A DNA stretch of 64,000 nucleotides. Origin: Candidatus Omnitrophota bacterium. Lineage in GTDB: Bacteria; Omnitrophota; Gorgyraeia; B26-G9. Shown here piece after piece: positions 5,843 through 49,738 of this stretch (position 1 is its first letter; every line of letters starts with the position of its first letter). The notes under the pieces are model-generated. The model ran no database searches. It saw nothing but the letters and a program-made list of their open reading frames with translations, and was not told the DNA's origin. The DNA is taken from assembly GCA_043806135.1 (NCBI GenBank), contig JAZDHG010000016.1:42110-106109 (forward strand), read 5' to 3'. Both the position numbers and the translations under genes were made by a program.

Positions 5843-5857
5843 CTGTAAAAAGTAGAG

Positions 5858-6016: not shown

Positions 6017-6039
6017 TACTTATAAATAAGGAGAATAAC

Positions 6040-6675: not shown

Positions 6676-7746
6676 ATGCTGGAAATAAAGGAATTGTTAA
6701 AGCTTATTGTCGAAAAAGGGGCATCAGATCTGCATTTAACCGTAGGTATTCCTCCGCAGCTTAGAATAGGCGGGCAGCTTACGTATATAGAAAATACTGA
6801 GGTGCTTACTCCGGAATCGATTCAGAAGCTGGCACATAGTCTTTTGACCGGCGATCAGATTAAATGGTTTGAATTAAAAAAAGAGCTTGATTTTTCCTGC
6901 GGGCTTCCTGAAATAAGCCGTTTTCGTGTGAACTTGTTTTATCAACGGGGATCTATTGCCTTAGCGGCACGCGTGATACCGTTTATTATCCCGACTATAG
7001 AAGAGTTAAAGCTTCCTGATGTGGTCAAGGATTATGCCGATAAACCAAACGGGCTGGTTTTAATAACCGGAGCAACAGGAAGCGGAAAATCAACTACGCA
7101 GGCGGCAATAATAGATTATATTAACAAAAGGCGCAGGGCGCATATTATATCGATAGAAGATCCAATAGAATATCTGCATAGACATAACTTGTGTACGATA
7201 AATCAACGCCAATTAGGTACTGATACACTATCTTTCCAGGAAGCGTTGAAGCATGTGTTGCGGCAGGATCCGGATATTGTTATTATCGGTGAGATGCGGG
7301 ATCTGGAAACAATCCAGGCGGCCTTGACGATTGCCGAAACCGGACATCTGGTCTTTGCGACATTGCATACAGGAAGCGCGGTTAATTCCATAAGCCGTAT
7401 TGTGGATGTTTTTCCGGCGCATCAGCAGCAGCAAATACGCGTGCAGCTTTCACTTGTGCTTTTGGGAGTTCTGGTGCAGCAGCTTATTCCCAACGCAAAG
7501 GGCAAAGGCAGGTCACTGGCAATGGAAGTTATGACGGTAATTACCGGTATCCAGAACCTGATCCGGGAAAATCAGACCCATCAGATCTATTCGCTGATCC
7601 AGACCGGCCGGCGTCACGGAATGTATACGATGAATCAATCGCTGTGTGATCTGATTTTTAGCGGAAAAATAACTTTTGAGGAAGGGCTTAAACATACGCT
7701 AGATGAAGAAGAATTAACTACTTTACTGCAAAAAGCAAAAAAATGA
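6676..7746 (+). CDS. pilT: Type IV pilus retraction ATPase PilT family (twitching motility protein)
   Basis: Walker A ([10 protein letters not shown]), the PilT/GspE secretion-NTPase fold and a length of about 356 aa. I take the ATG at 6676 as the start because a GGAG lies 8 nt upstream; the ORF track begins 30 nt earlier. Confidence 0.85.
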
Positions 7747-7762
7747 AAAGAAAGAGAAGGTT

Positions 7763-8764
7763 ATGGTAAAGATATATTATGAAAAAGATGCGGATTTAAA
7801 AATGCTGAAAAACAAGACGATTGGAATCATCGGTTACGGAAGCCAGGGGCATGCCCAGGCGCAGAACCTGCGCGATTCAGGCGTAAAAGTCATTGTATCG
7901 GAAATAAAGGGCACGGCGAACTACAAGCTGGCAAAATCACACGGATTCGATCCGATAAGTGCGGCAGAACTTGTAAAAAAAGCGGATATTATTCAGATCT
8001 TAGTCCCGGATGAGTTCCAGGCTGAGCTTTATAATAATGATATCAAGCCGAATATCGCATCCGGCAAGGCCATAATGTTTTCGCATGGTTTTAATATAAA
8101 CTTTGGACAGATCGTGCCTGAGAAAAATATAGATGTGTTCATGATCGCTCCTAAAGGACCGGGGCATCTTGTAAGGAGCGAATATGAAAAAGGCGGCGGA
8201 GTTCCTTGTCTTGTTGCTATTTTTCAAGATGCATCCGGCAATGCTAAAAAAATTGCACTGGCTTATGGCAAGGGGATAGGCGGTGCGCGCGCCGGGATTA
8301 TTGAAACCACGTTTAAGGAGGAAACAGAGACGGATCTTTTCGGCGAACAGGTTGTTCTGTGCGGCGGCGTTACAGAGCTTGTTAAAAAAGGTTTTGAGAC
8401 ATTGACAGAAGCAGGATATCAGCCGGAGATCGCTTACTTTGAATGCCTGCATGAGCTTAAATTGATCGTGGATCTTTTTTATCAAGGCGGAGTGAATTAT
8501 ATGCGCTATTCTGTTTCTAATACCGCTGAATACGGTGATCTGACCCGCGGCAAGAGGATAGTTACGGATGCTACTAAACGCGAAATGAAAAAGATCCTTA
8601 CCGAAATCCAGGATGGCAGTTTTGCCAAGGAATGGATGGATGAGTGTAAAAACGGGAAAAAGAACTTTAAGAAAATGGAAGAGGAAGGAAAGAATCATCC
8701 GCTTGAGATAGTCGGACGCGATCTGCGCAAGATGATGAAGTGGATTAATGCTAAGGAAGTTTAA
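7763..8764 (+). CDS. ilvC: Ketol-acid reductoisomerase
   Basis: 333 aa with a Rossmann motif ([20 protein letters not shown]) and the conserved KARI C-terminal domain. Confidence 0.92.
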
Positions 8765-8771
8765 TTAAAAA

Positions 8772-8870
8772 AATAGTTACTAATGGTTACTAAAGGTTAA
8801 TAAAGGTTTCTAAAGGTGGCAACAAGAAGTAATTAAATTTGGTAACTATTTGTAACTGTTTGTAACCTTT
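8772..8870. repeat. Phased 10-bp repeat array (GGTTACTAAT/GGTTACTAAA/GGTTAATAAA/GGTTTCTAAA then GTAACTATTT/GTAACTGTTT/GTAACC) upstream of leuA
   Basis: Read directly from the sequence. The helical-phase periodicity of GTTAC/GTAAC units ends about 15 nt before the leuA start. Confidence 0.6.
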
Positions 8871-8885
8871 AATGGGTGATAAGTC

Positions 8886-10418
8886 ATGAAGAAGATAAAG
8901 ATATTTGATACAACGCTAAGGGACGGAGAACAGGCTCCGGGAGCCAGTCTGAGCGGTCAGGAGAAACTTGAAGTTGCACATCAGCTGGTGCGTCTTGGCG
9001 TGGATGTGATCGAAGCAGGCTTTCCTATCTCTTCTCCGGGTGATTTTGACTCTGTAAAGCAAATAGCCCGCAAGGTAAAGGGAGCAACTATTTGCGGCCT
9101 GGCAAGGTCATTAAACAAAGATATAGAGGCTGCGGCTATGGCGCTTAAGCCGGCAAAAAGAAAACGTATCCACGTTTTTCTGGCAACATCTAAAATCCAT
9201 ATGAAATATAAACTAAGAAAAGCAGAAAGTGAAATACTCAAGATAGCCGAATCCGCAGTCAAGTATGCGCGAAAATTCTCTGCTGATGTCCAGTTTTCTC
9301 CGGAAGACGCTTCGCGTACAGAAAGAGAGTTTCTTTACCGGGTTATCGAAAGGGTGATCAAGGCAGGAGCAACAACGGTTAATATACCCGATACGGTAGG
9401 GTTTGCCCAGCCCGATGAATTCGGAGGGCTTATCCATGCCATAGTTAATAATGTGCCTAATGTGAACAAGGCGGTTATTGCCGTACATTGTCATAATGAC
9501 CTGGGTCTTGCCGTGGCTAACTCCCTTGCGGCTATCCGCAGCGGGGCAGGTCAGGTTGAGTGCACGATCAACGGCATTGGAGAAAGAGCCGGCAATGCTG
9601 CCTTAGAAGAGATAGTTCTTAGCATGCGCACCCGGAAAGATCATTTTAAAAATATTTACACGGATATTAATACGAAAGAGATCTATAAAACCAGCCGGCT
9701 GGTAAGTAAGCTGACTGGATTTGTAGTTGCGCCTAATAAAGCCATTGTCGGAGGAAATGCTTTCCGGCATGAGTCAGGAATCCATCAGGATGGGATGCTT
9801 AAAAAAAGACAGACTTATGAGATTATCAAACCCGAAGATGTCGGATTTTACGGCGAAGGTCTTGTGCTTGGAAAACATTCAGGCAGGCATGCGCTTTCGA
9901 AGCGGCTTGAACAGATCGGGTTTAAGCTGAATAAAGCCCAGCTGCAAAAGGCATTCATGCGCTTTAAAGAGCTTGCAGATAAGAAGAAAGAGGTTTTTGA
10001 AGAAGATCTTATGTCTATTGTTGAGGAACAGATGAAAGATGTCCCTGAAGTTTGGAGCCTGGTGGGACTAGATTTTTGCGGCGGTATAGGTGTTGAACCT
10101 AAGGCCACACTTTGGCTCAAAAAAAGCAAAAAGATATATAAGAAAACATCAAACGGAGACGGCCCGGTAGATGCCTGCTATAAGGCGATCGAAAAAATAA
10201 CCGGTATTAAAGCAAAACTGCTGGATTATTCCATTAAAGCTATTACCCGCGGTAAAGACGCGTTGGGAGAGGTTAATGTAAAGTTGAAGATAAAGCAGGA
10301 GGAGATCGGAGCGCGTGCGGCAAGCACCGACATTATTGAAGCTTCGGCTAAGGCCTATCTTAACGCTATAAACAGAGTACTGTTTAAAGCTAAAAAGGCT
10401 AATTCAATACGGCTTTAG
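8886..10418 (+). CDS. leuA: 2-isopropylmalate synthase (LeuA/CimA family, with C-terminal LeuA-dimer regulatory domain)
   Basis: 510 aa with the N-terminal motifs IFDTTLRDGEQAPG and HCHNDLGLAVANSLAA. The C-terminal ~130-aa regulatory domain is present. The sequence alone cannot exclude citramalate synthase. Confidence 0.8.
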   Translation: MKKIKIFDTTLRDGEQAPGASLSGQEKLEVAHQLVRLGVDVIEAGFPISSPGDFDSVKQIARKVKGATICGLARSLNKDIEAAAMALKPAKRKRIHVFLATSKIHMKYKLRKAESEILKIAESAVKYARKFSADVQFSPEDASRTEREFLYRVIERVIKAGATTVNIPDTVGFAQPDEFGGLIHAIVNNVPNVNKAVIAVHCHNDLGLAVANSLAAIRSGAGQVECTINGIGERAGNAALEEIVLSMRTRKDHFKNIYTDINTKEIYKTSRLVSKLTGFVVAPNKAIVGGNAFRHESGIHQDGMLKKRQTYEIIKPEDVGFYGEGLVLGKHSGRHALSKRLEQIGFKLNKAQLQKAFMRFKELADKKKEVFEEDLMSIVEEQMKDVPEVWSLVGLDFCGGIGVEPKATLWLKKSKKIYKKTSNGDGPVDACYKAIEKITGIKAKLLDYSIKAITRGKDALGEVNVKLKIKQEEIGARAASTDIIEASAKAYLNAINRVLFKAKKANSIRL

Positions 10419-15412: not shown

Positions 15413-15462
15413 GGGTCATTCTTAATTAAGTTGAATAGATTTTTATAAATTAATGATTTGCA

Positions 15463-15982: not shown

Positions 15983-16104
15983 CGGAAAATAGCGCAAAGC
16001 ATAAATAGTCGATAGTTAATAGGAAAAACTAAAAAGCCGAATATAAGCGGATATAGAGAAATGATAGCGAAAGAAAAACTAAGAAAACGTTGACATTAAT
16101 TTCT

Positions 16105-16158
16105 TGAAGTAACTATTAGTAACCAATATTAACTGTTTGTAACTGCTAGTAACCGAAA
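16105..16158. repeat. GTAAC-type repeat element (~50 bp, near-identical copy at 37968-38025) upstream of the CDF transporter gene
   Basis: GAAGTAACTATTAGTAACCAATATTAACTGTTTGTAACTGCTAGTAACC here versus GAAGCAACTATTAGTAACCCCTATTAACTGTTGGTAACTTGTAATTAGTAACC upstream of kdtA. A TTGACA hexamer lies at about 16090. Confidence 0.6.
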
Positions 16159-18355: not shown

Positions 18356-18380
18356 GCAATATTTTCCTTGATAGTAATAT

Positions 18381-18460
18381 TGGGGTCATTCTTATTTAGG
18401 GTGGAAGAATTTTGGTAAGACAATAAGAGTGAAGGGGTTAGATAGAAACCAGAATGGCCC
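18381..18460. repeat. ~80-bp intergenic repeat (second copy at 49571-49648, ~85% identical)
   Basis: GGGTGGAAGAATTTTGGTAAGACAATAAGAGTGAAGGGGTTAGATAGAAACCAGAATGGCCC here versus GGGTGAAAGAATTTTTGTAAGACAATAAGAGTGAAGTGCTTAGATAAAAACGAGGATGGCCC at the second locus. Confidence 0.6.
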
Positions 18461-34540: not shown

Positions 34541-34802
34541 TGATTGCACCGATTAAAAGCCCGATTACGCTGATATACTAATAGAAATTAATCCGTTGTA
34601 ATCTTTTAATAATCTGTGTAATCATGGGGCATGCTTAGTTGGTTCTAATAACTTGCAAATCATTAAGTTATAGAAAACGATTCAACTTAATTAAGAATGA
34701 CCCAAAAATTCTTCATAACGGGGGTAAAAACGAAGAACTCTTACGGAGTTGACTATGCCGTTTAAATAAGCTATTATATGAGACTATATACAAGGATAAA
34801 AT

Positions 34803-36851: not shown

Positions 36852-37733
36852 ATGGAACGATATATCGATAAGTTCTTGAATTATTTAAAAGTAGAAAAAG
36901 ATGCATCAGTGCATACCTTGATAAATTACAGCGTTGATTTGAAAGAGCTTGCGCAGTTTTTGAATAACCGGGAGCTTAAAACAATAGATGTTTTTGATGT
37001 CCGAAAATTTCTGGTTACGCTGCGGCAAAAAGGGTTTAAAAAAGTTACAATTGCACGTAAAATGGCCTGCCTCAGGTCTTTTTTTAAATTTTTAACCCGT
37101 GAAGGACATCTAAAAGCAAATCCGATGATCGGACTGGTTGGCCCGAAATTAGAAAAAAAACTGCCTTTATTTTTGGGTGAAGATGATATTGTGAAGCTTT
37201 TAGAAACGCCTGATGTTGCTGATGCTGCCGGATTGCGTGATAAAGCGATACTTGAGACATTATACAGCACCGGCATACGCGTAAGCGAGCTGGTGGGCTT
37301 AAGCGTAGAGGATATCGACTTTATTTCCGGGATTGTAAGAGTTTATGGTAAGGGCAAGAAGGAGAGGCTGGCGCCTATTGGTGATAGAGCGTTAAGGGTT
37401 ATCAAAAATTACTTAAAAAAGCGCAAAAAAGGCATAGGGACTTCTGATCGTGCGGTGTTTTTGAATAAGGACGGACGCAGGCTTACGGACCGCAGTATTC
37501 GCAATATCGTTGAAAAATATATAAAAGTTGCCAGTATTAGGACTGATATATCACCGCACAGCTTAAGACATTCGTTTGCCACGCATCTTTTGAACAGAGG
37601 GGCTGACCTGCGTTCAGTTCAGGAATTACTGGGCCATGCCAATTTATCCACAACGACTATATATACACATCTTTCCACGGAAAGACTTAAAAATGTTTAT
37701 GACAAGACGCATCCAAGGGCAAATAAAGAGTAA
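36852..37733 (+). CDS. xerC: Tyrosine site-specific recombinase XerC/XerD family
   Basis: 293 aa with the RHRY catalytic residues (HSLRHSFATHLL, LGHANLSTTTIYTH). The position after topA is common for xerC. Confidence 0.8.
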   Translation: MERYIDKFLNYLKVEKDASVHTLINYSVDLKELAQFLNNRELKTIDVFDVRKFLVTLRQKGFKKVTIARKMACLRSFFKFLTREGHLKANPMIGLVGPKLEKKLPLFLGEDDIVKLLETPDVADAAGLRDKAILETLYSTGIRVSELVGLSVEDIDFISGIVRVYGKGKKERLAPIGDRALRVIKNYLKKRKKGIGTSDRAVFLNKDGRRLTDRSIRNIVEKYIKVASIRTDISPHSLRHSFATHLLNRGADLRSVQELLGHANLSTTTIYTHLSTERLKNVYDKTHPRANKE

Positions 37734-37962
37734 GTAGCGAGTAACAAGAAAAAACCGAAGCCCGAAGGACGAGGGAAGAAGGACGCAATTTCAAGTAAAA
37801 AGTTAAAAGTAAAAAACAACAAAATAAGTTATAAATTACTAGTTATAAATTATGAGTGAAAAACAGAAAAACAAAAACAGCGGAAAGCATCTATTGTAGA
37901 GCGTATAGTTTTTTTACTCAATGCTCGATGTAAATTAAGATTAGTGCCTTTTGTGATTTTTT

Positions 37963-38068
37963 GAAGCAACTATTAGTAACCCCTATTAACTGTTGGTAAC
38001 TTGTAATTAGTAACCAGTAACTCATAACTCGTAATTCGTAACTAGTAATTAGTAGTAACTAGTAACTA
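37963..38068. repeat. GTAAC/GTAAT tandem heptamer and phased repeat array ending 4 nt before the kdtA start codon
   Basis: GTAACCA GTAACTC ATAACTC GTAATTC GTAACTA GTAATTA GTA GTAACTA GTAACTA. The 5' part is near-identical to the element at 16105-16158. Confidence 0.65.
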
Positions 38069-38072
38069 TCCC

Positions 38073-39350
38073 ATGACTCTATTATTTGATTTTATTTATT
38101 TGCTGTTAGCATTTTTTTATCTTCCGTCACTGCTTTTTAAAGGAAAGCGCCGGATAGGATTAAGGCAGCGTTTTGGCATTTATCCGAACCTCATTAAAAA
38201 AGCACTCAAAGAACATGATAATTTTGTCTGGGTGCATGCGGTTAGCGTGGGAGAGATGAAGGCAGCGGCACTGCTTATAAGGCAATTGAGAAGTTCGTTC
38301 CCCGGCGTTCGATTTGTTATCTCTACGATCACGCCTACCGGAAATACGGTTGCAAAACAGATAGCAACCAAAGAGGATATTGTTATATATTTACCCTTTG
38401 ATCTAAGCATTATTGTCAACAAGACACTTTCCTTAATAAACCCGAAAATGCTCATAATTTTGGAGACAGAACTTTGGCCGAATATGATCTGTATTGCCTC
38501 TAGAAAAAAAATACCGGTAGTTATTGCCAACGGCCGTATTTCCGACGGAGCGTATCCGAAATACAAAAAACTTTCTATTGTTTTCACTCCGATAATCAAA
38601 AGAATAACTTTGCTATGCATGCAAAGCGAAAAAGATGCGCAGAGAATCATTGCCCTTGGGGCAAGGCCCAAAAACGTTCAGGTTGTCGGTAATATTAAGT
38701 TTGATCAGGTGGGGGAAGCTTTTTCTAAAGAATTGCCTGAGCTTAAAACTAATAAAAACGAGTTATTGATCATAGCAGGCAGCACGCATGATAATGAAGA
38801 AGAGATGCTCGCAAGAGTATTCATAAAGCTTAAGCAAGTGCATCATGATATCCGCCTGCTTATAGCTCCCCGTCATCCTCGCCGCGCTATTGAGGTCGAG
38901 CGGGTATTAAGTAAATACGGCTTAAGCAGTAAAAGCATGAGCCGGATAATGCAGGAAGGGCTGCAGGTAGGACCTGAGGATGTCCTGGTGCTTGATATCA
39001 TGGGTGTATTGGCTCAAGTTTATAAATCAGCTGATATTGTTTTTATGGGGGGCAGTCTTGTTAAGCACGGAGGGCAGAACCCCATTGAGCCGGCACTTTG
39101 CTTTAAGCCGATCGTATTCGGGCAATATATGTTCAACTTTCGTGAGATAGAAAAGCTTTTCCTGTCGGAGAAAGCAGCGGTTTCAGTGGATAGCGAAGAG
39201 AGGCTGATGCGCTGCCTGGATGAACTTATCCGCGATAAAGGCAAAAGAGAAAGTCTGGCGGCTAATGCCCAAGCTTTAGTTTCGAAAAATCAGGGCGCTG
39301 TAAAAAGGATTGTAGAACTCTTGAAAGAGAAGGAACTGCTGCTCAAATAA
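38073..39350 (+). CDS. waaA: 3-deoxy-D-manno-octulosonic acid (Kdo) transferase
   Basis: 425 aa with an N-terminal membrane anchor and the WVHAVSVGE motif characteristic of KdtA/WaaA. Confidence 0.85.
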   Translation: MTLLFDFIYLLLAFFYLPSLLFKGKRRIGLRQRFGIYPNLIKKALKEHDNFVWVHAVSVGEMKAAALLIRQLRSSFPGVRFVISTITPTGNTVAKQIATKEDIVIYLPFDLSIIVNKTLSLINPKMLIILETELWPNMICIASRKKIPVVIANGRISDGAYPKYKKLSIVFTPIIKRITLLCMQSEKDAQRIIALGARPKNVQVVGNIKFDQVGEAFSKELPELKTNKNELLIIAGSTHDNEEEMLARVFIKLKQVHHDIRLLIAPRHPRRAIEVERVLSKYGLSSKSMSRIMQEGLQVGPEDVLVLDIMGVLAQVYKSADIVFMGGSLVKHGGQNPIEPALCFKPIVFGQYMFNFREIEKLFLSEKAAVSVDSEERLMRCLDELIRDKGKRESLAANAQALVSKNQGAVKRIVELLKEKELLLK

Positions 39351-39411
39351 AAATTTTTTAATTACAATGTTAACTAAAAAATATATAATGGTTAACAATA
39401 GAAGGAGTTTT

Positions 39412-41238
39412 ATGAAGAAAATGAGCATCAGAATTGTTTTTATTCTGTTAGCGATCAGCTTGTTTTTACTGTGCCTGAATGCCGATGGATTTGCCAAGGA
39501 CACTGAATCCGGTGTTTATTACCTTGAACCTGTGTTAGTTTATCCATCGGTCATTGATGAATACTATTCCAATTCCTTGCGTCATATGGAAGATAAGGGA
39601 TATAAATCAGGAGCTGTTGAGGACGGCTTAAGAGAGATTTCCTTTGTTGATGTACAAAGGCGCGGGCCTTACGGGATACAATCAGATGTTCAGATACGTG
39701 CGGCCACATTTGAGCAGACCGATGTTTTAATTGACGGGATAAAAGTCAATGACCCGCAAACCGGGCATTTTAATATGGATATTCCTTTTTCCTGCTTTGA
39801 TATTGACAGAATGACCGTTATCTCAGGTCCGGCAGCGGGGGTTAATGCAGCAGGCAGGCAAGGAGGCTCAGTACATATTGTTACAAAGAAGCCGCAAGGA
39901 GAAGGTGTTAAGGCTAAAGCTGTTTTTGGAGAAAATGGGTTTCAAAGCCAAATGCTCTCTGTTTTATACCCGTTAGCCGGGGTTAATTCACGGACAAATA
40001 TCGGACGCAGTTCTTCTGATGGGTATATGTATAATACTGATTTCGATACGATTAATTTTTCCCATATCAGCAATATAAAAAGCGGTTACGGAGATATTGA
40101 TTTTAAATTAGGGTTTTTGGATAAAGAATTTGGCGCGAACGGATTTTACTCAGAATTTTTTCCGGATCAGAAAGAACATACAAAAACAATTTTTTCAAGT
40201 GTTGGATTGAAAGCGGAATCGAATGGTTTTTATTTTAATCCTCAGATTTATGTGCGCCGCCATAAAGACCGCTTTATGCTGAAAAAATCAAACCCGGCCT
40301 TTTACGAAAATATTCATGTCAATTATGTAAAAGGAGCTAAGATTGATATGATAAGTGAATTTTACTCAGGCAGAATTTTTTATGGAGTAGATACTGCTGT
40401 AGAAAGTATTAACAGCAGTAATTTAGGAAAACACAACCGCGGCAGAAACATGGTTTATTCTACTTATACCCGAAAGATTGATAAATGGATTGCATCAGTT
40501 GGGTTGACCGGTTATATTTATGAAGGATTTAAAAAAAAGGCAGCTCCGGATATGGGTATTGGGTATTTATTAACGGACAAACTTAAACTGCGCAGTGCCT
40601 GCGGCCAGTCGTTTCGCGCACCGACATTTACAGAACTCTATTATCAGAGCCCGGCTAATATCGGTAATGAGAATCTAGCTCCTGAGAGATCGAATAATTA
40701 TGAGTTCGGGATTGATTATGATGATGAATATCTTAGTTCATCATTGACTTTGTTCAAAAGAGAGGAAAAAGACTTGATCGACTGGGTCAGGAGTCCGTCT
40801 TCTACGATCTATAATATCAAAAACATAACAAGGGTTGATACAAACGGAGCAGAGGTGGATTTAAAATTATATCCAAAAAACATGAGCCCGGAATTAAAAT
40901 CCTGGGATGAGGTTTGGTTTGGCTACGCATTTAATGATAGAGACCAAAAAGAAACAGGGTTTATTTCAAAATATGTTTTTGATTATTTGAAGCATAAATT
41001 TACAGCAGGCTCTAAAAACTCTCTTCCTATGGGCATAGCTCTAAATAATAACGTTATATATCAGCAGCGTTCAAATATGGGAGGGGATTTTATTGTTAAT
41101 AGTTCACTCGAGAAAAAAATCAAGGAGTACGCGGTCTCTTTAAAAGTAGATAATCTATTTAATAAGGCATATGCTGAAAGAGGCAATATCCCCATGCCGG
41201 GTCGTTTGATCTTTGCCGGTATTTCAAGTGAGTGGTAG
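39412..41238 (+). CDS. TonB-dependent outer-membrane receptor-like protein
   Basis: Signal peptide (MKKMSIRIVFILLAISLFLL), a plug-domain motif (DVLIDGIKVNDPQTGHFN), a long beta-barrel region, and a C-terminal aromatic residue (SSEW). I take the ATG at 39412 as the start because GGAG lies 5 nt upstream. Confidence 0.75.
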   Translation: MKKMSIRIVFILLAISLFLLCLNADGFAKDTESGVYYLEPVLVYPSVIDEYYSNSLRHMEDKGYKSGAVEDGLREISFVDVQRRGPYGIQSDVQIRAATFEQTDVLIDGIKVNDPQTGHFNMDIPFSCFDIDRMTVISGPAAGVNAAGRQGGSVHIVTKKPQGEGVKAKAVFGENGFQSQMLSVLYPLAGVNSRTNIGRSSSDGYMYNTDFDTINFSHISNIKSGYGDIDFKLGFLDKEFGANGFYSEFFPDQKEHTKTIFSSVGLKAESNGFYFNPQIYVRRHKDRFMLKKSNPAFYENIHVNYVKGAKIDMISEFYSGRIFYGVDTAVESINSSNLGKHNRGRNMVYSTYTRKIDKWIASVGLTGYIYEGFKKKAAPDMGIGYLLTDKLKLRSACGQSFRAPTFTELYYQSPANIGNENLAPERSNNYEFGIDYDDEYLSSSLTLFKREEKDLIDWVRSPSSTIYNIKNITRVDTNGAEVDLKLYPKNMSPELKSWDEVWFGYAFNDRDQKETGFISKYVFDYLKHKFTAGSKNSLPMGIALNNNVIYQQRSNMGGDFIVNSSLEKKIKEYAVSLKVDNLFNKAYAERGNIPMPGRLIFAGISSEW

Positions 41239-41467
41239 GAGACAGCTAAAGAGCATAGTAATACCACCCCCAGGGTGGGCTTTGGGTGGTAAAATCTACT
41301 CCAACTTAAAGCTCTATAAAGAATTCTTTTTACTCATTACACATTATCCGTCTTTCTTTTCTAAGAAAACCTTGATATACTATAAGTTATCCCGAATATT
41401 TTATAATATAGGCTGTTGCACATGCTCGTGACGCCAATACCATGAAATACCCAGGATTGGAGGCAGA

Positions 41468-41848
41468 ATGAATACAAAACAAATAGGCAAGATCGGAGAG
41501 AACCTGGCGGTCGAGTTCCTTAAATCTAACAATTATAATATATTAGAGCGCAATTATCACAACCGGATAGGAGAAATTGATATCATTGCCGAAAATTCAA
41601 GTGTGCTTTGTTTTATTGAAGTAAAAACGCGCGCAAATGACAATTTCGGGCTTCCCCAGGAAGCGATATCAAAATCAAAACAGCGTAAAATATCTCAAAC
41701 TGCTTTAGCTTATCTTAAAGCAAGAAATAGGCTTAAAGGTAATTTTCGCTTTGATGTTATTGCGGTTATGCTGAACGAGGCAGGTGAAAATCCGGATATT
41801 AACTTAATCAAAAATGCTTTTGATCTGGATCGGCAATATTTTATTTAG
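41468..41848 (+). CDS. yraN: YraN family endonuclease (UPF0102)
   Basis: 126 aa with GENLAVEFLKSNNYNILERNYHNRIGEIDIIA. Confidence 0.8.
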   Translation: MNTKQIGKIGENLAVEFLKSNNYNILERNYHNRIGEIDIIAENSSVLCFIEVKTRANDNFGLPQEAISKSKQRKISQTALAYLKARNRLKGNFRFDVIAVMLNEAGENPDINLIKNAFDLDRQYFI

Positions 41849-41856
41849 AGGAAGAG

Positions 41857-42912
41857 ATGAATAATAAACAATATTTAGCAGGGCTTTACCCCGAAGAACT
41901 TCAAACCATAGTAGCGGGCTTAAACCATCCAGTATACAGGTCAAAGCAGATACAGGAGTGGATATTTAAGAAAAGTGTTCTGTCTTTTTCAGAGATGAAA
42001 AACCTTCCCGGAGAACTAAGGGAAAAGCTGGAGATTAAAAATTGTCCTGTCAGTCTTCATCAAAAATTAAAATTAACCTCTGCTGTTGATAAAACCTCTA
42101 AATATATTTTTATTACCGATGATGATAATTCTTTAGAAACTGTTTTGATACCGACAGCCAAGCGGGCTACTGTATGCGTATCTACTCAGGTAGGATGTGC
42201 CTTTGGGTGCTTATTTTGCGCAAGCGGCAGCGGAGGACTGGTGCGCGATCTTAGGGCAGATGAGATCGTTTCGCAGCTATTGCTTGTAAAAAAAGACAAC
42301 CCCGAACAGCCGGTCACTAATATTGTATTTATGGGCATGGGAGAGCCGCTGGCAAATTATGAGAATACTTTAAAGGCAATCAGGATTTTAAACCATCCGG
42401 ATTGTCTGGGAATAGCCGCAAGGAGGATAACCATTTCAACCTGCGGGTTGCCGGATGCGATATTGCAGCTTGCCAAAGAGAACATACAGTTTGAATTATC
42501 GATCTCGTTGCATGCCGCGGATAATGATACGCGAAACCGTCTTATGCCGATAAACAAGAAATTCCCCCTGAATATGCTGATGAAGGCGGCCAGGGAATAC
42601 ACTCAGGTGACAAACCGCATGATCACATTTGAATATGTGATAATGGACGGGATCAATGATTCAATAAAAGCAGCTTTAGATATCGCGCATCTATTCTTTG
42701 CACTTAAGTGTAAACTTAATATTATCCCGTTTAATCCTGCTGGGGCAATGGATTTTAAGCGCGTGAAAAAAACACAGCTTGAAGAATTCACGCATATGCT
42801 TCAAAGGCTTAAGATCAATTTCACTCTAAGGCGTTCGCGGGGTGCGGATATCCAAGGCGCCTGCGGACAATTGAGAGCAAACTTAGATAAGGGGTTAGGG
42901 GATAGCGTATAG
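41857..42912 (+). CDS. rlmN: 23S rRNA (adenine2503-C2)/tRNA methyltransferase RlmN (radical SAM)
   Basis: 351 aa with the radical SAM CxxxCxxC motif in VGCAFGCLFCASG, conserved RlmN N- and C-terminal motifs, and the catalytic Cys in GACGQL. Confidence 0.92.
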   Translation: MNNKQYLAGLYPEELQTIVAGLNHPVYRSKQIQEWIFKKSVLSFSEMKNLPGELREKLEIKNCPVSLHQKLKLTSAVDKTSKYIFITDDDNSLETVLIPTAKRATVCVSTQVGCAFGCLFCASGSGGLVRDLRADEIVSQLLLVKKDNPEQPVTNIVFMGMGEPLANYENTLKAIRILNHPDCLGIAARRITISTCGLPDAILQLAKENIQFELSISLHAADNDTRNRLMPINKKFPLNMLMKAAREYTQVTNRMITFEYVIMDGINDSIKAALDIAHLFFALKCKLNIIPFNPAGAMDFKRVKKTQLEEFTHMLQRLKINFTLRRSRGADIQGACGQLRANLDKGLGDSV

Positions 42913-42937
42913 GGGATAGAATTGTTGGTTGATCGTA

Positions 42938-43007
42938 ACATAAAGATCAGCTGCCCTGAGCCGCCACGATTAGCGGCGGGGAAGGGTTAGCTGAATTGCC
43001 TTGTTAT
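42938..43007 (+). repeat. attC-like imperfect palindromic repeat A
   Basis: ATAAAGATCAGCTGCCCTGAGCCGCCACGATTAGCGGCGGGGAAGGGTTAGCTGAATTGCCTTGTTAT. The stop codon of the downstream minus-strand gene overlaps the GTTAT box. Confidence 0.6.
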
Positions 43008-43282
43008 CTTTTTTCCATCATTCTGCCATTAACAAATTTATGAATAATGCTTGCTAATAAAGTTTGATAAGGAATGCCTTCTTCTATTGCTCTAATTTGG
43101 ATTCCATTGAGATCCTTTGAAGATATTCTAATGTTCACGCGTTTATCTTTTTTTAAGGTGTTTTTAGCATATTTTTGATGTTTTTTGATCTCTTGTTTTA
43201 AATCTTTTATAGATTCCCATTCCTTCCGGTTATAAGAATCTACTAAGTCTTGTTCATATTTGTCTAAATTATTTTTTTTCAT
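43004..43282 (-). CDS. brnA: BrnA antitoxin (RHH/CopG-like; type II TA)
   Basis: 92 aa with KDKRVNIRISSKDLNGIQIRAIEEGIPYQTLLASIIHKFVNGRM, a BrnA signature. Overlaps brnT by 4 nt. Confidence 0.8.
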   Translation of the reverse strand: MKKNNLDKYEQDLVDSYNRKEWESIKDLKQEIKKHQKYAKNTLKKDKRVNIRISSKDLNGIQIRAIEEGIPYQTLLASIIHKFVNGRMMEKR

Positions 43283-43563
43283 TTTTCACCTCGTATATAT
43301 TTTTTTGTAGCTTCACGGCTAGGGATAATAGTTTTTAGAAAATATGTGTCTCCTTTTTCTGCAACAAAAGGCACTAAATACGCATAATTATTTACATTAA
43401 CAATAAGAATGTTTTGATTGGGATATTTATTTTTATTCGGATGGTGTATTATATCAATAAGGTAACCTTTTTCTATGCAAGAAACTATTTCTTCAAAACA
43501 GATACCCCGATCATTTTTCAGCAGTTTATTTTTATCATTATCCCAATTATAGTATATATTCAT
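43279..43563 (-). CDS. brnT: BrnT toxin (DUF497 RNase; type II TA)
   Basis: 94 aa of DUF497-like sequence (NDRGICFEEIVSCIEKGYLIDII), paired with brnA. Confidence 0.75.
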   Translation of the reverse strand: MNIYYNWDNDKNKLLKNDRGICFEEIVSCIEKGYLIDIIHHPNKNKYPNQNILIVNVNNYAYLVPFVAEKGDTYFLKTIIPSREATKKYIRGEK

Positions 43564-43620
43564 AATTAAAATATATCACATTGTGTGCGCTTTGGCAACA
43601 AAATATTTTATATTAATATA

Positions 43621-43690
43621 ACATAAAAATCAGCTGCCCTGAGGCGGCGCCGAATGGCGGCGGGGAAGGGTTAGCTAATTGCTTTGTTAG
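43621..43690 (+). repeat. attC-like imperfect palindromic repeat B
   Basis: ACATAAAAATCAGCTGCCCTGAGGCGGCGCCGAATGGCGGCGGGGAAGGGTTAGCTAATTGCTTTGTTAG. Confidence 0.6.
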
Positions 43691-43693
43691 ATT

Positions 43694-43972
43694 TTACTGA
43701 TATCTATGTTTATCATACACTTCCTTGCGATGGCCTATTTTTAACACTATAATATCATTTTCTTCGATTTTATAGATAACTCTATAATCTCCCACGCGTA
43801 GTTTTCGGTATCCTTGCAGGCTTCTACGCAAGGGTTCACCATATTTGATAGGATCAGATAGCAGCCTATTTTCAATAGCTTTTCTAATTCTTGTTTTTAT
43901 GTTTTTTGGAATTCCTGAAATATCTTTTTTGATTTCAGGATGATAGGAAATCTGATAGTTCATTAGTTCCAA
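43694..43972 (-). CDS. relE: RelE/ParE-family toxin (type II TA)
   Basis: 92 aa with the RelE/StbE fold pattern (RKLRVGDYRVIYKIEENDIIVLKIGHRKEVY). Confidence 0.8.
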   Translation of the reverse strand: MELMNYQISYHPEIKKDISGIPKNIKTRIRKAIENRLLSDPIKYGEPLRRSLQGYRKLRVGDYRVIYKIEENDIIVLKIGHRKEVYDKHRYQ

Positions 43973-44190
43973 ATATCCTTGTGAGATATTTTTTTATTCT
44001 TTGAAAGAGAATTGTCTCTTTTTCGTGCCTGTTCTTGCCAATATAAATCTTCTCTAATTTCCAAAGCTTCTTTTATAAGATCTCTGGAGAAAAGAGATAG
44101 GGAAATTCCCTGGCTTTGAGCTGATTTATTAAGAATATTATATATTTCAGGGTCAAGTACGACATTTATTCTAGGATTTTTAGTTGGCAT
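43963..44190 (-). CDS. RHH (CopG/RelB-like) antitoxin partner of RelE
   Basis: 75 aa with an N-terminal ribbon-helix-helix segment (RINVVLDPEIYNILNKSAQSQGISLSLFSRDLIKEAL). Overlaps the relE start. Confidence 0.7.
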   Translation of the reverse strand: MPTKNPRINVVLDPEIYNILNKSAQSQGISLSLFSRDLIKEALEIREDLYWQEQARKRDNSLSKNKKISHKDIWN

Positions 44191-44310
44191 ATTTTTACCT
44201 CCACAATAAGTGTATCACATGTGATGAACCTTGTCAATGGGTAATTATCCCATTTTTGCATTTAATGGTAGGGGGGGTAAAAATAGTCGCTGTCCCTATT
44301 TTTCCCTAGA

Positions 44311-44660
44311 TAAACAATAAATTCCCCCTGAATATGCTGATGAAGGCGGTCAGGGAATATACTCAAGCGACAAACCGCATGATCACCTTTGAGTATGTGA
44401 TAATGGACGGGATTAATGATTCAATAAAAGCAGCTTTAGATATTGCGCATCTACTCTTTGCACTTAAGTGCAAACTTAATATTATCCCGTTTAATAATGT
44501 TGGGGCAATAGATTTTAAACGCGTGAAAAAAGCACAGCTTAAAGAATTCACGCATATGCTCCAAAGGCTTAAGATTAATTTTACTATAAGGCGTTCGCGG
44601 GGTGCGGATATTCAAGGCGCCTGCGGGCAGTTAAGGTTACATGTAGATAAGGGTAATTAG
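44311..44660 (+). pseudogene. rlmN: Duplicated 3' fragment of rlmN (last ~108 codons; ~90% nt identity to 42551-42890)
   Basis: Direct comparison with rlmN 42551-42890. The translation (MLMKAVREYTQATNRMITFEYVIMDGINDSIKAALDIAHLLFALKCKLNIIPFN...RRSRGADIQGACGQL) matches the RlmN C-terminus, but the radical SAM N-terminus is absent. Confidence 0.85.
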
Positions 44661-44746
44661 GCGTAAGCTGTAAGTTTTAAGCCTTAAGCAAAAACAGAAA
44701 GTATCCAATAAGTTTCTAAAAGTTTAGGTCTTATTACGTACAGCTT

Positions 44747-44820
44747 ATAACGTAAAAATCAGCTGCCCTAAGCCGACGCCAACTGACGGCGGGGAAGGGT
44801 TAGCTGGATTGTCTTGTTAG
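44747..44820 (+). repeat. attC-like imperfect palindromic repeat C
   Basis: ATAACGTAAAAATCAGCTGCCCTAAGCCGACGCCAACTGACGGCGGGGAAGGGTTAGCTGGATTGTCTTGTTAG. Confidence 0.6.
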
Positions 44821-44825
44821 AAATT

Positions 44826-45092
44826 CTATTCATAATGAGTCCACATGCGAATAATTTTTACTGTTTTATATTTTTTTAGAACTTGATAAACAATTCTATG
44901 TTGTATAGTTACTCTTCTTGAGTATGCGCCGGTTAAATCACCTACTAGCTTTTCGAATGGGGGGGGAGTCTTGAAAGGATTTCTCTTTATGATTTCCAGG
45001 ATAGCTTCGGCTTTAGGACACATACCACTGGCAGAAAGTTTCTTTGCGTCCTTCAAAGCTTGTTTTGTATAAACTATTTTCCAATTTACCAT
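44826..45092 (-). CDS. yoeB: YoeB/Txe-family toxin (type II TA)
   Basis: 88 aa with KIVYTKQALKDAKKL...LTGAYSRRVTIQHRIVYQV...IIRMWTHYE, a YoeB signature. Confidence 0.85.
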   Translation of the reverse strand: MVNWKIVYTKQALKDAKKLSASGMCPKAEAILEIIKRNPFKTPPPFEKLVGDLTGAYSRRVTIQHRIVYQVLKKYKTVKIIRMWTHYE

Positions 45093-45343
45093 GTTAATTT
45101 CTTATTGCATTCTTTAATTGGAGTTTTTAATCCCTTCCGAATTGATTCTCGCATTCCTGGAATAGAGATAAGATATAAGGTTTCCTGGATAGACCGCCAG
45201 TCATTTTCTGAAATTAAGACAGCATTATGTCTTTTTCCAGTAATCTGTATCGGTTCATGCGATAAGGCGGTCTTGTCTAATAATTTATATAATATGCTTC
45301 GTGCTTGACTTGCTGTTAAAGTAGTCACTGTAATCACCTCCAA
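45086..45343 (-). CDS. yefM: YefM/Phd-family antitoxin
   Basis: 85 aa of Phd/YefM-type N-terminus (LTASQARSILYKLLDKTALSHEPIQITGKRHNAVLISENDWRSIQETLYL). Overlaps yoeB by 7 nt. Confidence 0.85.
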   Translation of the reverse strand: MEVITVTTLTASQARSILYKLLDKTALSHEPIQITGKRHNAVLISENDWRSIQETLYLISIPGMRESIRKGLKTPIKECNKKLTW

Positions 45344-45414
45344 TTAAAGCGTACCACATCACGTACGTTTTGTCAATAATTGATTTTTATATTATTTATT
45401 GCTAACATTTGAGC

Positions 45415-45478
45415 TCAGGCAGAGGAAACCGACGCCATTTGGCAGCGGTTTGCGATTGCCTGGAGCGATTTGCTAGGA
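45415..45478 (+). repeat. Degenerate attC-like repeat D'
   Basis: The core ACCGACGCCATTTGGCAGCGG resembles GCCGACGCCAACTGACGGCGG of repeat C. The outer arms have diverged. Confidence 0.4.
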
Positions 45479-45479: not shown

Positions 45480-45830
45480 CTATTTATTTTCTTCCTGAAT
45501 AATTTTTTCGATTTCTTTATGGAGAGAGGGGATTTTGTTAATAACTACATCCCACACAATATCATAATCTATGCCGAAGTAATCATGTATTAATATATCC
45601 CGCATGCCAGCCATAGCGCGCCACTCTATATAAGGATGTTTTTGTTTTAAGTTGTCAGGGGTATTTTTTGTAGCCTCTCCGATAATTTCTATACTACGGA
45701 CAAACGCTCGTTGGAGTGTTTCGTGCTGCATAAAATTTTCTTTAGCCAATCCTTTTGTTTGACTTAAAATATATTTTGTTTCATCCAATATATGGTGAAG
45801 ATATTCATGCCCGGGAAATGACATATTCAA
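45480..45830 (-). CDS. hepT: HepT-like toxin (DUF86, RNase; HepT/MntA type II/VII TA)
   Basis: 116 aa with the Rx4HxY motif in MRDILIHDY and a DUF86 helical pattern. Confidence 0.8.
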   Translation of the reverse strand: MNMSFPGHEYLHHILDETKYILSQTKGLAKENFMQHETLQRAFVRSIEIIGEATKNTPDNLKQKHPYIEWRAMAGMRDILIHDYFGIDYDIVWDVVINKIPSLHKEIEKIIQEENK

Positions 45831-46113
45831 CCTCTCTCAATATATTAGGTTTAATATAAGGGCTTAATGATTCGGAAGTTACTAATTCTATGCGATGTTT
45901 TAATAATGTTTCAAGCAAAAAGGAAAGGTGAATGAAATTATCAAAGTTTTTTTTATCAGGGTAGAATTCAACAAGTAAATCAATATCGCTTTTAGGGTTT
46001 TGTTTTCCCTTAACGAACGAGCCAAAAAGACCAAGTTGTTTCACGCCGAAAGATATAATATCATTTTGGTTATTTTTTATAAGATTTAAAATTTCTTCTT
46101 TATCTTTAATCAT
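45805..46113 (-). CDS. mntA: MntA-like minimal nucleotidyltransferase antitoxin
   Basis: GLFGSFVKG....SDIDLLV nucleotidyltransferase motif. I take the ATG at 46113 as the start; the ORF track extends to a TTG at 46149. Overlaps hepT. Confidence 0.75.
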   Translation of the reverse strand: MIKDKEEILNLIKNNQNDIISFGVKQLGLFGSFVKGKQNPKSDIDLLVEFYPDKKNFDNFIHLSFLLETLLKHRIELVTSESLSPYIKPNILREVEYVISRA

Positions 46114-46277
46114 ATTACTTATTATAACTATTCTTATTGGAGTTTTCAATAGATAGTATTTTTTTTGAATGAACCCAAACTAAAATTAAAGAGATTATCC
46201 AAAGTATCCCAGTAGCAAAGCCCCCCACCAATAATACTAAATAAAGCAGAAAGAAGCTATTCATTCATAATTTTTCA

Positions 46278-46363
46278 GATAACACAAAAATCAGCGGCCT
46301 TTAGAAACGGCACCTTCTTTTTCGCAAAAGCCGTTAATAAAGGTCCGCTGGATTGTCTTGTTA
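46278..46363 (+). repeat. attC-like imperfect palindromic repeat E (longer loop)
   Basis: ATAACACAAAAATCAGCGGCCTTTAGAAACGGC...GCCGTTAATAAAGGTCCGCTGGATTGTCTTGTTAG, with nested inverted repeats. Confidence 0.55.
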
Positions 46364-46370
46364 GATGGTA

Positions 46371-46937
46371 CTATTTTATTTCTATCAAAATGGTGTTAGA
46401 AATTAAACTATCGACAAAAACATTTTTAAGCCCTATTTTTTTACTTATCGCAATCTCTTTTCCATCTGTATCTACTGTAATTCCATCCCACCCATCATAA
46501 GTAACAAAAACTTTAAATTTTCCTGAATGAGCTAATTTAATTAATGAATCATCAAAATCGATGACAGAATTTTTTTCTTTTCGTATTTTTGCTTTGATAT
46601 TCCTTTTATATTCTTCTCCTGCCTTGACCAACTTGTAATCTTTTTCATCCCACATTATATCATACATAATTGTTCTTTCTGAGGGTTGGTTGTTTCCTGC
46701 TTCGTCAGTAATGGTAAATAAATCTGCGTTATAAATATCCTCGATATAAATATACCTATCTTCTGGGGTTATATTTTTAAGAATTAACAGAAATTCCATG
46801 TTGTCTTCTGGTTTATAAATCTTTTTATCCGATGTGATAGTAAATTGGAACACTTGAGATGCTTCTCGACATCGTCCAGTTATAGCTAAAGAGAAAATCG
46901 CAATCCCTATAACTGTAAAAATAATTAATTTTTTCAT
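46371..46937 (-). CDS. Secreted/lipoprotein-like hypothetical protein (last cassette-like unit)
   Basis: Signal peptide (MKKLIIFTVIGIAIFSLAITGRC) with a GGAGG RBS upstream of the ATG at 46937. No recognisable domain. The ORF-track start (47021, TTG) is probably too long. Confidence 0.55.
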   Translation of the reverse strand: MKKLIIFTVIGIAIFSLAITGRCREASQVFQFTITSDKKIYKPEDNMEFLLILKNITPEDRYIYIEDIYNADLFTITDEAGNNQPSERTIMYDIMWDEKDYKLVKAGEEYKRNIKAKIRKEKNSVIDFDDSLIKLAHSGKFKVFVTYDGWDGITVDTDGKEIAISKKIGLKNVFVDSLISNTILIEIK

Positions 46938-47256
46938 TATTTTCCTCCATCTAACATTTAATAGCCGAAAGGCGCATTTCCTTGTGTTTTTCAGCATACC
47001 ATATCTAATTTTGTGGGGCAATTAGAATTTTTCAGAGTAAAAAACTTGAAATTGGCCCATATTTTGTCTATAAAACCACAACTCAGAGCCCATCACTGGG
47101 GTAGGATTTGGGTTGCTTTTAATGATAGCTTTGTGACCTTTGTCCCGGCGACAATAACTGTATTTTCTCTAACTGCTAAACGTTATAATTGTGATATACT
47201 ATAGAAGATCTTGCTAACACATAACTCATAATTCATCACTTGTAACTGAGGCAGAT

Positions 47257-47766
47257 ATGTCTCTACACTATATAATCGACGGATACAATGTTATAAAACA
47301 GGTGACCTTTTTGACCGGGGAAAAGCTAAGGGCCGGAAGAGAAGGCCTGGTACAATTTATTGAACGCTACAGGCCTCAGGGCTCAAAACGCAATGAGATA
47401 ACTATTGTTTTTGACGGTAAAGCCGAGGTGGTTGGCTATAGTATGAAAACTGATATAAAGATAATATTCAGCAGGAACGAATCAGCAGACGATGTAATAA
47501 AGCGTATGATAGAGAAAGTTTCTAATCCCGGGCAGTATGTGGTAGTAAGCGATGATAAGGCAGTTGTGTTCTACTGCCGGTCTATCGGAGCGAAATGGAT
47601 TGCGGTAAAAGATTTTATTGGCAATACAGGCATTAAGAAAACGCCGCAGAAAAAGAGCAGTTATATACCGGAATCAAAGGAATTATCGCAGGATATAGCC
47701 GATAAGATCACTGAGAACCTGAGAAAACTTTGGGTTAAGGATGATGAAAAGGAAAGCTGGTATTAG
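47257..47766 (+). CDS. NYN-domain (YacP-like, PIN-fold) predicted RNase
   Basis: 169 aa with MSLHYIIDGYNVIKQ and an acidic-residue pattern like B. subtilis YacP. Confidence 0.6.
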   Translation: MSLHYIIDGYNVIKQVTFLTGEKLRAGREGLVQFIERYRPQGSKRNEITIVFDGKAEVVGYSMKTDIKIIFSRNESADDVIKRMIEKVSNPGQYVVVSDDKAVVFYCRSIGAKWIAVKDFIGNTGIKKTPQKKSSYIPESKELSQDIADKITENLRKLWVKDDEKESWY

Positions 47767-47794: not shown

Positions 47795-47940
47795 AGTTAT
47801 GAATTACGAGTGATGAGTTATGAATTAAGAAAGGGAAGCTGGTTTGTGGGTGTGGAGGCTGGAAAAATAAAAGCAAAAAACTATTAACTTGTAATTTATA
47901 ACTCGTAATTAGTAATTTGTAACTTATAACCTTGTATTTG
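47795..47940. repeat. GTAAC/GTAAT heptamer-type repeat arrays (two blocks in opposite orientation) upstream of the flavoprotein gene
   Basis: AGTTATGAATTACGAGTGATGAGTTATGAATTAAG (47795-47830) and CTATTAACTTGTAATTTATAACTCGTAATTAGTAATTTGTAACTTATAACCTTGTA (47880-47940). Both are similar to the kdtA-upstream array. Confidence 0.6.
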
Positions 47941-49397: not shown

Positions 49398-49592
49398 GTG
49401 TTTGTGGGAGCGTTATTTATCCTTACGGGCATTTTGATCGCGCTTAATCCGCCGCTCTTATCATTTATCGCGGCTTCAATTTTGATATTACCGGGCCTGG
49501 GATTTATGAGCATTAGTTATCATTACAAAAAAATTTCAAAACAATTTGAAGGTCCCTCTATGGATTTTTTGAGCCATTCTTCTCTAGGGTGA
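49398..49592 (+). CDS. Small membrane protein (64 aa, GTG start)
   Basis: GGAGG RBS 8 nt upstream and two hydrophobic helices. Confidence 0.35.
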   Translation: MFVGALFILTGILIALNPPLLSFIAASILILPGLGFMSISYHYKKISKQFEGPSMDFLSHSSLG

Positions 49593-49738
49593 AAGAATTT
49601 TTGTAAGACAATAAGAGTGAAGTGCTTAGATAAAAACGAGGATGGCCCATGATTACGCCGATGAAAAACAGATTATAGCGATTGTCTAGGTTCGAAGAAG
49701 AACGAATCTATGTAATCATGTTTTAATCTGTGGAATCA

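Follow-up and report, generated by a model that had tools for sequence, protein, structure and literature searches.

The rlmN/yacP locus and its cassette array

The window, a 64-kb stretch of Omnitrophota DNA, contains a full-length rlmN gene; a protein identical to its product, from an Omnitrophota MAG at NCBI, carries the annotation RlmN. The locus lies among ordinary chromosomal genes (ilv/leu, chemotaxis, topA, xerC, kdtA and TonB-dependent receptor genes). Between rlmN and yacP lies a 4.3-kb block, at ∼42.9-47.0 kb, that holds five attC sites and small ORFs on the minus strand. The features of the locus are collected in Table 1.

Table 1. Features of the rlmN/yacP locus, with coordinates in the window
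Feature	Position	Strand	Evidence or remarks
rlmN, full length, 351 aa, presumed functional	41857-42912	+	TIGR00048 377 bits (cutoff 290); Pfam Radical_SAM, RlmN_N
Resident copy of the repeat (rlmN codons 231-345)	42549-42893	+	MAFFT, repeat finder, blastn
Spacer after resident copy, encoding an atypical tail (..LGDSV, stop)	42894-42933		resembles a degenerate attC right arm (GGGGTTAG...GAATTGTTGGTTGATC)
attC1	42934-43010	-	repeat families D6, D7, D20; pattern searches; fold
Cassette 1, BrnT-like toxin (43279-43563) and CopG/BrnA-like antitoxin (43004-43282)	43004-43563	-	Pfam, both below gathering score
attC2	43617-43693	-	repeats, pattern searches, fold
ParE toxin (43694-43963) and RHH antitoxin (43963-44190)	43694-44190	-	Pfam ParE_toxin 4.5e-14, RHH_5
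ParDE promoter, TTGACA-17-TACACT, with palindrome TCACATGTGA between the hexamers	44209-44237	-	promoter prediction
46-nt filler, containing an A+T-rich hairpin of 12 bp (GGGTAAAAATAG-N9-CTATTTTTCCC) in which a single A is bulged	44263-44308		between the ParDE promoter region and the embedded copy
Embedded rlmN 3' end, 115 codons, frame open, antisense to the cassettes	44309-44653	+	alignments; RlmN profile positions 235-344 of 355 only
ATG-started ORF within the embedded copy	44334-44660	+	NCBI: 106-aa version, V1739_02000; ends ..DKGN, stop, like relatives' RlmN
Spacer past embedded copy	44654-44745		GTAAG/TTAAG short repeats, resembling the rlmN 3' flank of relative L083
attC3	44746-44822	-	repeats, pattern search, fold
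Cassette 3, YoeB toxin and Phd/YefM antitoxin	44826-45343	-	Pfam
attC4, second sequence family (..TAACATTTGAGCTCAGGC..)	45401-45477	-	fold; also in L083, L084, L094
Cassette 4, HepT, MNT nucleotidyltransferase and 49-aa ORF	45480-46264	-	ORFs, Pfam
attC5	46274-46366	-	repeats, pattern searches, fold
Cassette 5, 188-aa protein without assigned function	46371-46937	-	ORF, Pfam search
yacP (NYN domain)	47257-47766	+	next gene after rlmN in array-less relatives; right edge of insertion

When folded as single strands, all five sites have outer TAAC/GTTA boxes that pair, a spacer that does not, an inner box carrying additional bases, and a tip that varies; attC1, for example, forms an R box, then an unpaired spacer and an L box that carries additional bases, and its tip is variable. 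The L boxes of attC1-3, attC5 and a site in the related locus L083 vary in sequence yet stay paired, and the outer-box pattern is enriched in the array and, apart from chance matches, confined to it. On the plus strand, it is the 3' arm that holds the extra bases (T or TT, and G), as in canonical bottom strands, so that the plus strand is the bottom strand and the cassettes are read on the minus strand. The cassette ORFs are all on the minus strand, with stop codons that lie 0-7 nt from, or overlap, the R'' end of the attC site, and their orientation agrees with that of the complete integron described below. NCBI names the products of cassette 1 'toxin' and 'antitoxin', and the ParDE promoter is conserved, upstream of a homologous gene pair, in the related loci L093 and L094.

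No integron integrase was found in the 64-kb window, either by Pfam searches of the flanking ORFs or by tblastn with the integrase of L094, whose sole match was XerC (36852-37733), the only tyrosine recombinase. Searches of the whole window against Rfam matched no family. Since the attC sites occur in a window that lacks an integron integrase, the block is a CALIN, and each of the features tested agrees with this class: the attC architecture, the ORF orientation, the absence of an integrase within ∼4 kb, and the presence of homologous cassettes in an integron. Arrays of this kind, and sedentary chromosomal integron arrays, have been described (Cury et al., 2016, PMC4889954), and the terms CALIN and SALIN are also defined in bioRxiv 10.1101/2022.09.11.507474. 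The window resembles the toxin-antitoxin-rich members of the class in having five R''-L''...L'-R' sites that are nearly uniform, co-oriented small ORFs, no integrase nearby, and toxin-antitoxin cassettes that carry their own promoters. It differs from them in its phylum, Omnitrophota, and in that one cassette position is occupied by an antisense piece of the neighbouring housekeeping gene.

A complete integron homologous to the array is present in L094 and L095, where an integrase (TIGR02249, 414 bits; cutoff 265) and an attI-like GTTAGGC are followed by co-oriented cassettes. In L094, a 52-kb JGI/ENA contig, the integron occupies 2344-3630 and 3631-10340 with roughly eight to ten cassettes, and the integrase, at 428 aa, has an N-terminal extension of ∼100 aa relative to the TIGR02249 profile. 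Its attC sites have the sequence xCTAACAAG...GTTAGAC/GTTATAA, which is also that of the window's sites on the minus strand. In L094/L095 the final cassette holds a ParDE pair, and the ParE of this pair falls in the 90%-identity cluster of the window's ParE; the attC site and 5' boundary of this cassette in L094 differ from those of the ParDE cassette in the window. The start of the ParDE cassette was compared in L092, L093 and L094, of which L094 alone gave a clean attC boundary: there the cassette begins G^TTAGATTTAAT... (here and below a caret marks the join), merely ∼36 nt ahead of the common promoter.

The second attC family (..TAACATTTGAGCTCAGGC...GCCTGGAGCGATTTG..) was also seen outside the window. 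In addition to 45401-45477, it occurs in L083 (6020-6155), L084 (9810-9875) and L094 (7843-7900 and 9590-9690), and is thus spread over arrays of several lineages, beside the first family (..TAACATAAAAATCAGCTGCCC..).

A second rlmN 3' end within the array

Between the ParDE pair and attC3, the array contains a second copy of the 3' end of rlmN. Positions 42549-42893, in the resident gene, align with 44309-44653 over 345 nt without a gap (MAFFT, family D1 of the repeat finder, and blastn), with 32 mismatches. The resulting identity of 90.7% confirms the value of about 90% given in an earlier, sequence-only reading of this DNA, and a match of this length and identity cannot be chance. There is no third copy within the 64-kb window. 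The earlier reading put the homology at the last 108 codons of rlmN, which has to be corrected to 115 codons; it is the ORF starting at an ATG within the embedded copy that has 108.

The left edge of the homology is sharp, at GATAAACAA, where both copies open G-ATAAACAA (42549 and 44309), and no similarity between the resident and embedded copies was found by alignment upstream of this point. In the embedded copy the shared leading G is the third base of an in-frame TAG. The right edge is GATAAGG(G/T), 2-6 codons ahead of each copy's own, different stop codon. Past the homology, the spacers of 40 nt (resident) and 92 nt (embedded) are weakly alignable, and each leads to a complete attC-like repeat, attC1 and attC3, respectively; the common start and the differing distances to such a repeat had been described correctly from the sequence alone. 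A tandem duplication of the entire 1.76-kb unit was considered and rejected, since the repeated parts are the rlmN piece and the generic attC alone. Inspection of the duplicate edge by eye gave no convincing match to a Xer/dif-like site.

The 46-nt filler that precedes the embedded copy belongs neither to rlmN nor to the ParDE cassette with the limits seen in L094, and it occurs once in the window. It was examined as a possible attC remnant, and this was rejected because the fold and box spacing do not fit. A metagenome scan with the filler hairpin returned six matches, five of which belong to an unrelated conserved element on gut and other contigs; the sixth, on JGI contig L098, has only the AAAAATAGG...CCTATTTTT palindrome in common with the filler and carries it twice. 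None of the six was informative about the origin of the filler.

Integrity of the assembly

The source of the window is a metagenome-assembled genome, and its contig might join two co-occurring strains, in which case no single genome would carry both copies of the rlmN 3' end. We consider this very improbable. The longest exact run common to both copies is 31 nt, and the left junction has just 9 nt in common with rlmN, so that a collapsed repeat or a misjoin in a k-mer graph, which needs a longer common k-mer, is unlikely. Moreover, the junction between filler and rlmN 3' end must be present in some real molecule, whether or not the contig is a chimera. Two Logan contigs from other samples (L001 and L002) match window positions 38587-42990 and 39642-43923 at 99.93% and reproduce the order rlmN-attC1-BrnTA-attC2-ParE, and hence the left part of the structure, although both end inside the array, at 42990 and 43923. 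Logan matches and exact-protein and cluster look-ups yielded no independent assembly over the embedded copy or 43924-44830: no further contig was found with a protein identical to that of the embedded ORF, to the RHH antitoxin or to YoeB, and in the cluster look-up the ParE, RHH, embedded-copy, YoeB and HepT ORFs are on record solely from the 124-kb NCBI MAG contig. With the 31-nt longest run and the 9-nt overlap at the junction, the view that the duplication is no assembly artefact most likely holds.

Substitution pattern and age of the join

The embedded copy contains neither a stop codon nor a frameshift or indel in its 115 codons. Differences between the copies fall at codon positions 1, 2 and 3 in the numbers 8, 5 and 20, and change 17 codons synonymously and 13 non-synonymously. 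The Nei-Gojobori comparison of copy with copy gave a dS of 0.30 and a dN of 0.057, with a dN/dS of 0.19 (Fisher p = 8e-6 against neutrality); the background value for the same region of rlmN, calculated between the window and L083, is 0.24. When the changes were polarised with L083, the synonymous ones were divided 8:8 between the resident and embedded copies, and the non-synonymous ones 6:8.

These numbers bear on whether the lineage could have copied its own rlmN 3' end long ago and left the extra copy to decay in place as a pseudogene. The ∼9% divergence and the direct-repeat arrangement are what such a duplication could leave behind, and several radical changes on the embedded copy, e.g., P to N in PFNP, are also in line with it. 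However, a copy that had been neutral throughout is predicted to show a pairwise dN/dS of ∼0.6 and not the observed 0.19, and its branch should carry mostly non-synonymous changes, where the observed 8 non-synonymous to 8 synonymous is unlikely under neutrality (binomial p = 0.01). A decaying copy also fits poorly with 115 codons free of stop codons and indels, and the DNA between the two copies is not duplicated. We therefore regard duplication in place as improbable, and the description of the repeat as an old duplication, taken from its divergence in the sequence-only reading, is unlikely to be right, since the dN/dS (0.19), the Fisher test and the 8:8 synonymous split indicate purifying selection on both branches.

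A decayed full-length paralogue is ruled out by the substitution pattern, which lacks relaxed constraint (dN/dS 0.19), together with the missing 5' part of rlmN, no remnant of which was found. The absent 5' part, the sharp left edge and the cassette position instead favour a footprint of recombination, as the earlier reading had supposed. The low dN/dS and the equal synonymous split indicate that both copies built up almost all of their differences while they belonged to working genes, hence in separate lineages, and that they came together only recently; we infer that the event was probably recent relative to the allelic divergence. The radical changes on the embedded copy, such as the replacement of a Pro codon (CCT) by an Asn codon (AAT) in PFNP, a conserved motif, amount to an excess of ∼2-3 non-synonymous changes and would fit a short spell of relaxed constraint. 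Because a genome of the second lineage was not found (the nearest other RlmN in the protein search was 77% identical, and degenerate DNA encoding NDSIKAALDI, used to scan metagenomes for the species, gave no match), the argument for two lineages is drawn from the substitution pattern, with its small counts (32 differences).

Coding potential of the embedded copy

Low dN/dS would also be expected if the fragment were a functional small protein, the C-terminal domain of RlmN retained in a cassette by selection. An intact frame of 106-116 codons and the protein annotated by NCBI point the same way. Yet the fragment lacks the CxxxCxxC radical-SAM cluster motif, a conserved proline is replaced, and no obvious ribosome-binding context was seen. 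On the plus strand, promoter prediction placed no sigma-70-like promoter ahead of the fragment, and no 5' part of rlmN precedes it. The protein search recovered no close stand-alone homologues: the fragment is alone in its 90% cluster, and the remaining short RlmN-like proteins are only 41-48% identical to it. From the missing cluster motif, the position antisense to the cassettes, the lack of a predicted promoter and the lack of close homologues, we infer that the fragment is probably inert, with no function of its own, and we find the small-protein reading hardly credible. The NCBI 'hypothetical protein' V1739_02000 should accordingly be treated as a gene fragment.

The array and the rlmN junction in related genomes

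In L089, L090 and L091, whose RlmN proteins are 58-60% identical to that of the window, rlmN is followed within 5-50 nt by yacP and the array is absent. Past yacP, their gene order is that of the window, including OMP, PEMT and RecJ, with the HI0933-like gene in L089 and L090. Loci whose RlmN is 69-77% identical (L083, L084-L087 and L088) carry minus-strand small ORFs and attC sites directly after rlmN, with contents that differ. The absence of the array from the former and its presence in the latter suggest that it entered the rlmN/yacP site in the ancestor of the clade and has diversified since; to judge from this gene order, the array of the clade looks like one ancestral insertion.

The sequence-only reading had proposed the 3' end of rlmN as the attachment or hotspot site of the array. 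The array does sit at the 3' flank of rlmN; the further claim that the attachment site lies inside the gene falls short of proof. A close relative without just the 1.76-kb unit was not encountered: the distant relatives lack the whole array, and the species is missing from the JGI scan. Relatives among the matches listed in an RlmN scan of genome contigs were at most 45% identical and uninformative about synteny.

The border between rlmN and the array also varies within the clade. Resident RlmN ends ..DKGLGDSV, an extended tail that is read from attC-arm-like sequence. The embedded copy ends ..DKGN, as does P0005, P0002 and L083 end ..DKGE, and such ends are typical of most relatives; in both L083 and the embedded copy, short GTAAG/TTAAG repeats then follow. 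In L084 (9018-9062; also in L085-L087, RlmN 72% identical), rlmN runs into a family-1 attC site, so that its last codons and its stop form part of that site's well-preserved right arm, GATAAAAGGGGTTAGCTGGATTAAGTTGTTAGAT. This fusion of gene and attC half occurs at the microhomology AAGGG, and the resident tail of the window at 42894-42933 looks like a decayed version of it. At both junctions rlmN ..AAGGG is fused to attC ..AAGGGTTAGC. The remodelled junctions of L084 and the resident copy show that microhomology events shape the rlmN/array border. Since the junctions differ between lineages (L083, L084, L088 and the window), the border has been remodelled repeatedly in this Omnitrophota clade, with three junction types in four lineages.

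In L083 (5469-5990) and L088 (9060-9569), an opposite-strand ORF of ∼170 aa converges on rlmN within 7-12 nt, ahead of the first attC site. It has no Pfam match, the two DNAs are alike by eye, and it is missing from the window.

Origin of the embedded copy

On balance, the embedded sequence is probably an inert, displaced or captured allelic rlmN 3' end, left as a scar of recombination with a diverged lineage; the lack of the radical-SAM cluster motif and of the rlmN 5' part leads us to read it as such an allelic end. Any model would require the import of DNA from a diverged relative, with one rlmN kept intact. There would have been two Omnitrophota lineages, ∼9% apart at rlmN, each with rlmN, a decayed attC arm and a cassette array, and DNA of one would have recombined into the other at the rlmN/array junction. 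The product would be one intact rlmN and a promoterless 3' fragment that has kept its own downstream spacer, beside attC3 and 1.4 kb into the array. The left join, G-ATAAA^C, may have arisen by illegitimate joining at microhomology with homology anchoring one side, a route that we slightly favour; alternatively, an integron integrase supplied in trans may have used a GTT secondary site. In the illegitimate route, a linear fragment would be anchored by rlmN and its upstream genes, or by yacP and its downstream genes, and the other side would join at the GATAAAC microhomology. Campbell-type homologous integration of a larger excised circle was considered as a third route. Against a scar of exchange between lineages, dN/dS would likewise be held low if the fragment were still under selection as a small protein, and the 46-nt filler at the left junction is not accounted for.

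The position of the fragment raises the possibility that it is a pseudo-cassette made by an integrase. Integron integrases are reported to use GWT sites in the genome, and excision at nearby genomic sites to take pieces of the genome with it (bioRxiv 10.1101/2022.09.11.507474); chromosomal integrons are also fed by transformation (PMC12614218). In a related lineage, IntI would have joined the R' box of the terminal attC site to a GTT (attG-type) site inside rlmN, excising an attC-less circle of ∼436 bp (spacer and rlmN 3' end); the circle would have entered the array of the window at the R' box of attC3. The foreign segment would then span about 44315-44750, with AA^C at both ends, and ParDE, in an array variant where it follows attC3, would be expected to start TTTATCTAGGG. 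Insertion of such a circle at attC3 would yield exactly the order seen, with the fragment in a cassette position and abutting the crossover end (R' box) of attC3, and homologous cassettes are present in an integrase-bearing integron (L094).

At the left edge, the minus strand reads TTG^TTTATC, a GWT site in the same orientation as the R' boxes of the array (G^TTATC/T). The earlier reading had suggested looking for a recombination core such as GTT at the breakpoints, and a GTT/AAC co-oriented with the attC crossover boxes is indeed there; the signal is nevertheless weak, with such triplets occurring every ∼50 nt, and by our own estimate an AAC/GTT lies within a few nt of any boundary in about one case in seven by chance in A+T-rich DNA. 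Other details fit an integrase less well. The homology continues for 6 nt (GATAAA) beyond the point where the crossover is predicted, the partner box that this model implies, GATAAAC, is one A longer than the GATAAC/TATAAC of the array, and the flanking 46 nt have no attC fold and are not recognisable as a cassette start when compared with L094. Furthermore, an attC-less circle is a poor substrate, and the window has no integrase. Formation of the pseudo-cassette by IntI is thus a reading to which we attach a real but minor chance, and it is similarly doubtful that an integrase, acting at a GTT secondary site, took up part of the adjacent housekeeping gene and left it, attC-less, in the array of another lineage. 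Site-specific integration into rlmN, one of the options in the sequence-only reading, is weakened by the lack of an integron integrase in the window and by a far side that is 46-nt filler and has no recognisable attC or cassette boundary.

Comparison with known systems

The closest parallel is that of elements which integrate inside a gene, such as e14 and phage 21 in E. coli icd: the incoming DNA supplies a new 3' end for icd, while the old one persists downstream as a pseudo-copy. The window is similar in having an intact gene with a diverged 3'-end partner shortly downstream, differences between the two that are mainly synonymous, each end having evolved in a working gene, a sharp left edge of homology, and homology that reaches the end of the gene. 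The two copies form a direct repeat flanking 1.4 kb, with rlmN intact, as expected of an attL/attR pair. Unlike the icd elements, however, the window has no integrase, phage or island genes between its copies, which enclose only two toxin-antitoxin pairs and two attC sites, and the repeat lies inside a cassette array and not at the two ends of an island.

Recombination of IntI at attG (GWT) sites (bioRxiv 10.1101/2022.09.11.507474) is matched by the GTT of the edge, which has the orientation of the partner attC boxes on the cassette strand and a low information content, and by the other edge, which abuts an attC crossover box. It is not matched by the junction partner, which in the window is no recognisable attC site or cassette start, nor by the window's lack of an integrase.

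The exchange between lineages that we favour may also be likened to homology-facilitated illegitimate recombination in natural transformation. In Acinetobacter and pneumococcus, this process uses homology on one side of the incoming DNA and microhomology on the other, and can leave partial duplications of the recipient gene. The microhomology at the window's join is a candidate for the second side. The fragment would then record that two diverged lineages recently exchanged DNA at the edge of a chromosomal cassette array and, as matters stand, is a tidy, ordinary recombination scar. If the integrase reading were true instead, the locus would document that chromosomal DNA is drawn into a cassette array in nature, and would provide, in the little-studied Omnitrophota, a snapshot of how integrons mobilise ordinary chromosomal DNA, the step with which cassette genesis begins and which is still unsolved.

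Other repeats in the window

Several other repeats were observed. Intergenic runs of a ∼7-nt unit (GTAACTN/GTAATTN) occur at 8839-8866, 16099-16154, 37956-38062, 47202-47245 and 47865-47922, and sit upstream or downstream of many genes; similar short-period repeats (GTAAG, TTAAG and CAAGCT) are found past genes in the related Omnitrophota loci L083 and L093. An intergenic element of 81 nt with no Rfam match is present at 18380-18460 and 49568-49648 (85% identity), with a partial third copy at 15413-15448. At 8-2140, three tandem paralogous ORFs (107-436, 447-1259 and 1271-2140), of which the middle one has no Pfam match, contain DNA segments that are 63-78% identical (repeat families D2, D5, D8 and D12). 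Finally, a 27-nt motif, TTGTAATCTTTTGATAATCTGTGTAAT, is found at 6602-6628 and 34596-34622, 28 kb apart with 96% identity, and in a weaker third copy at 49710-49736.
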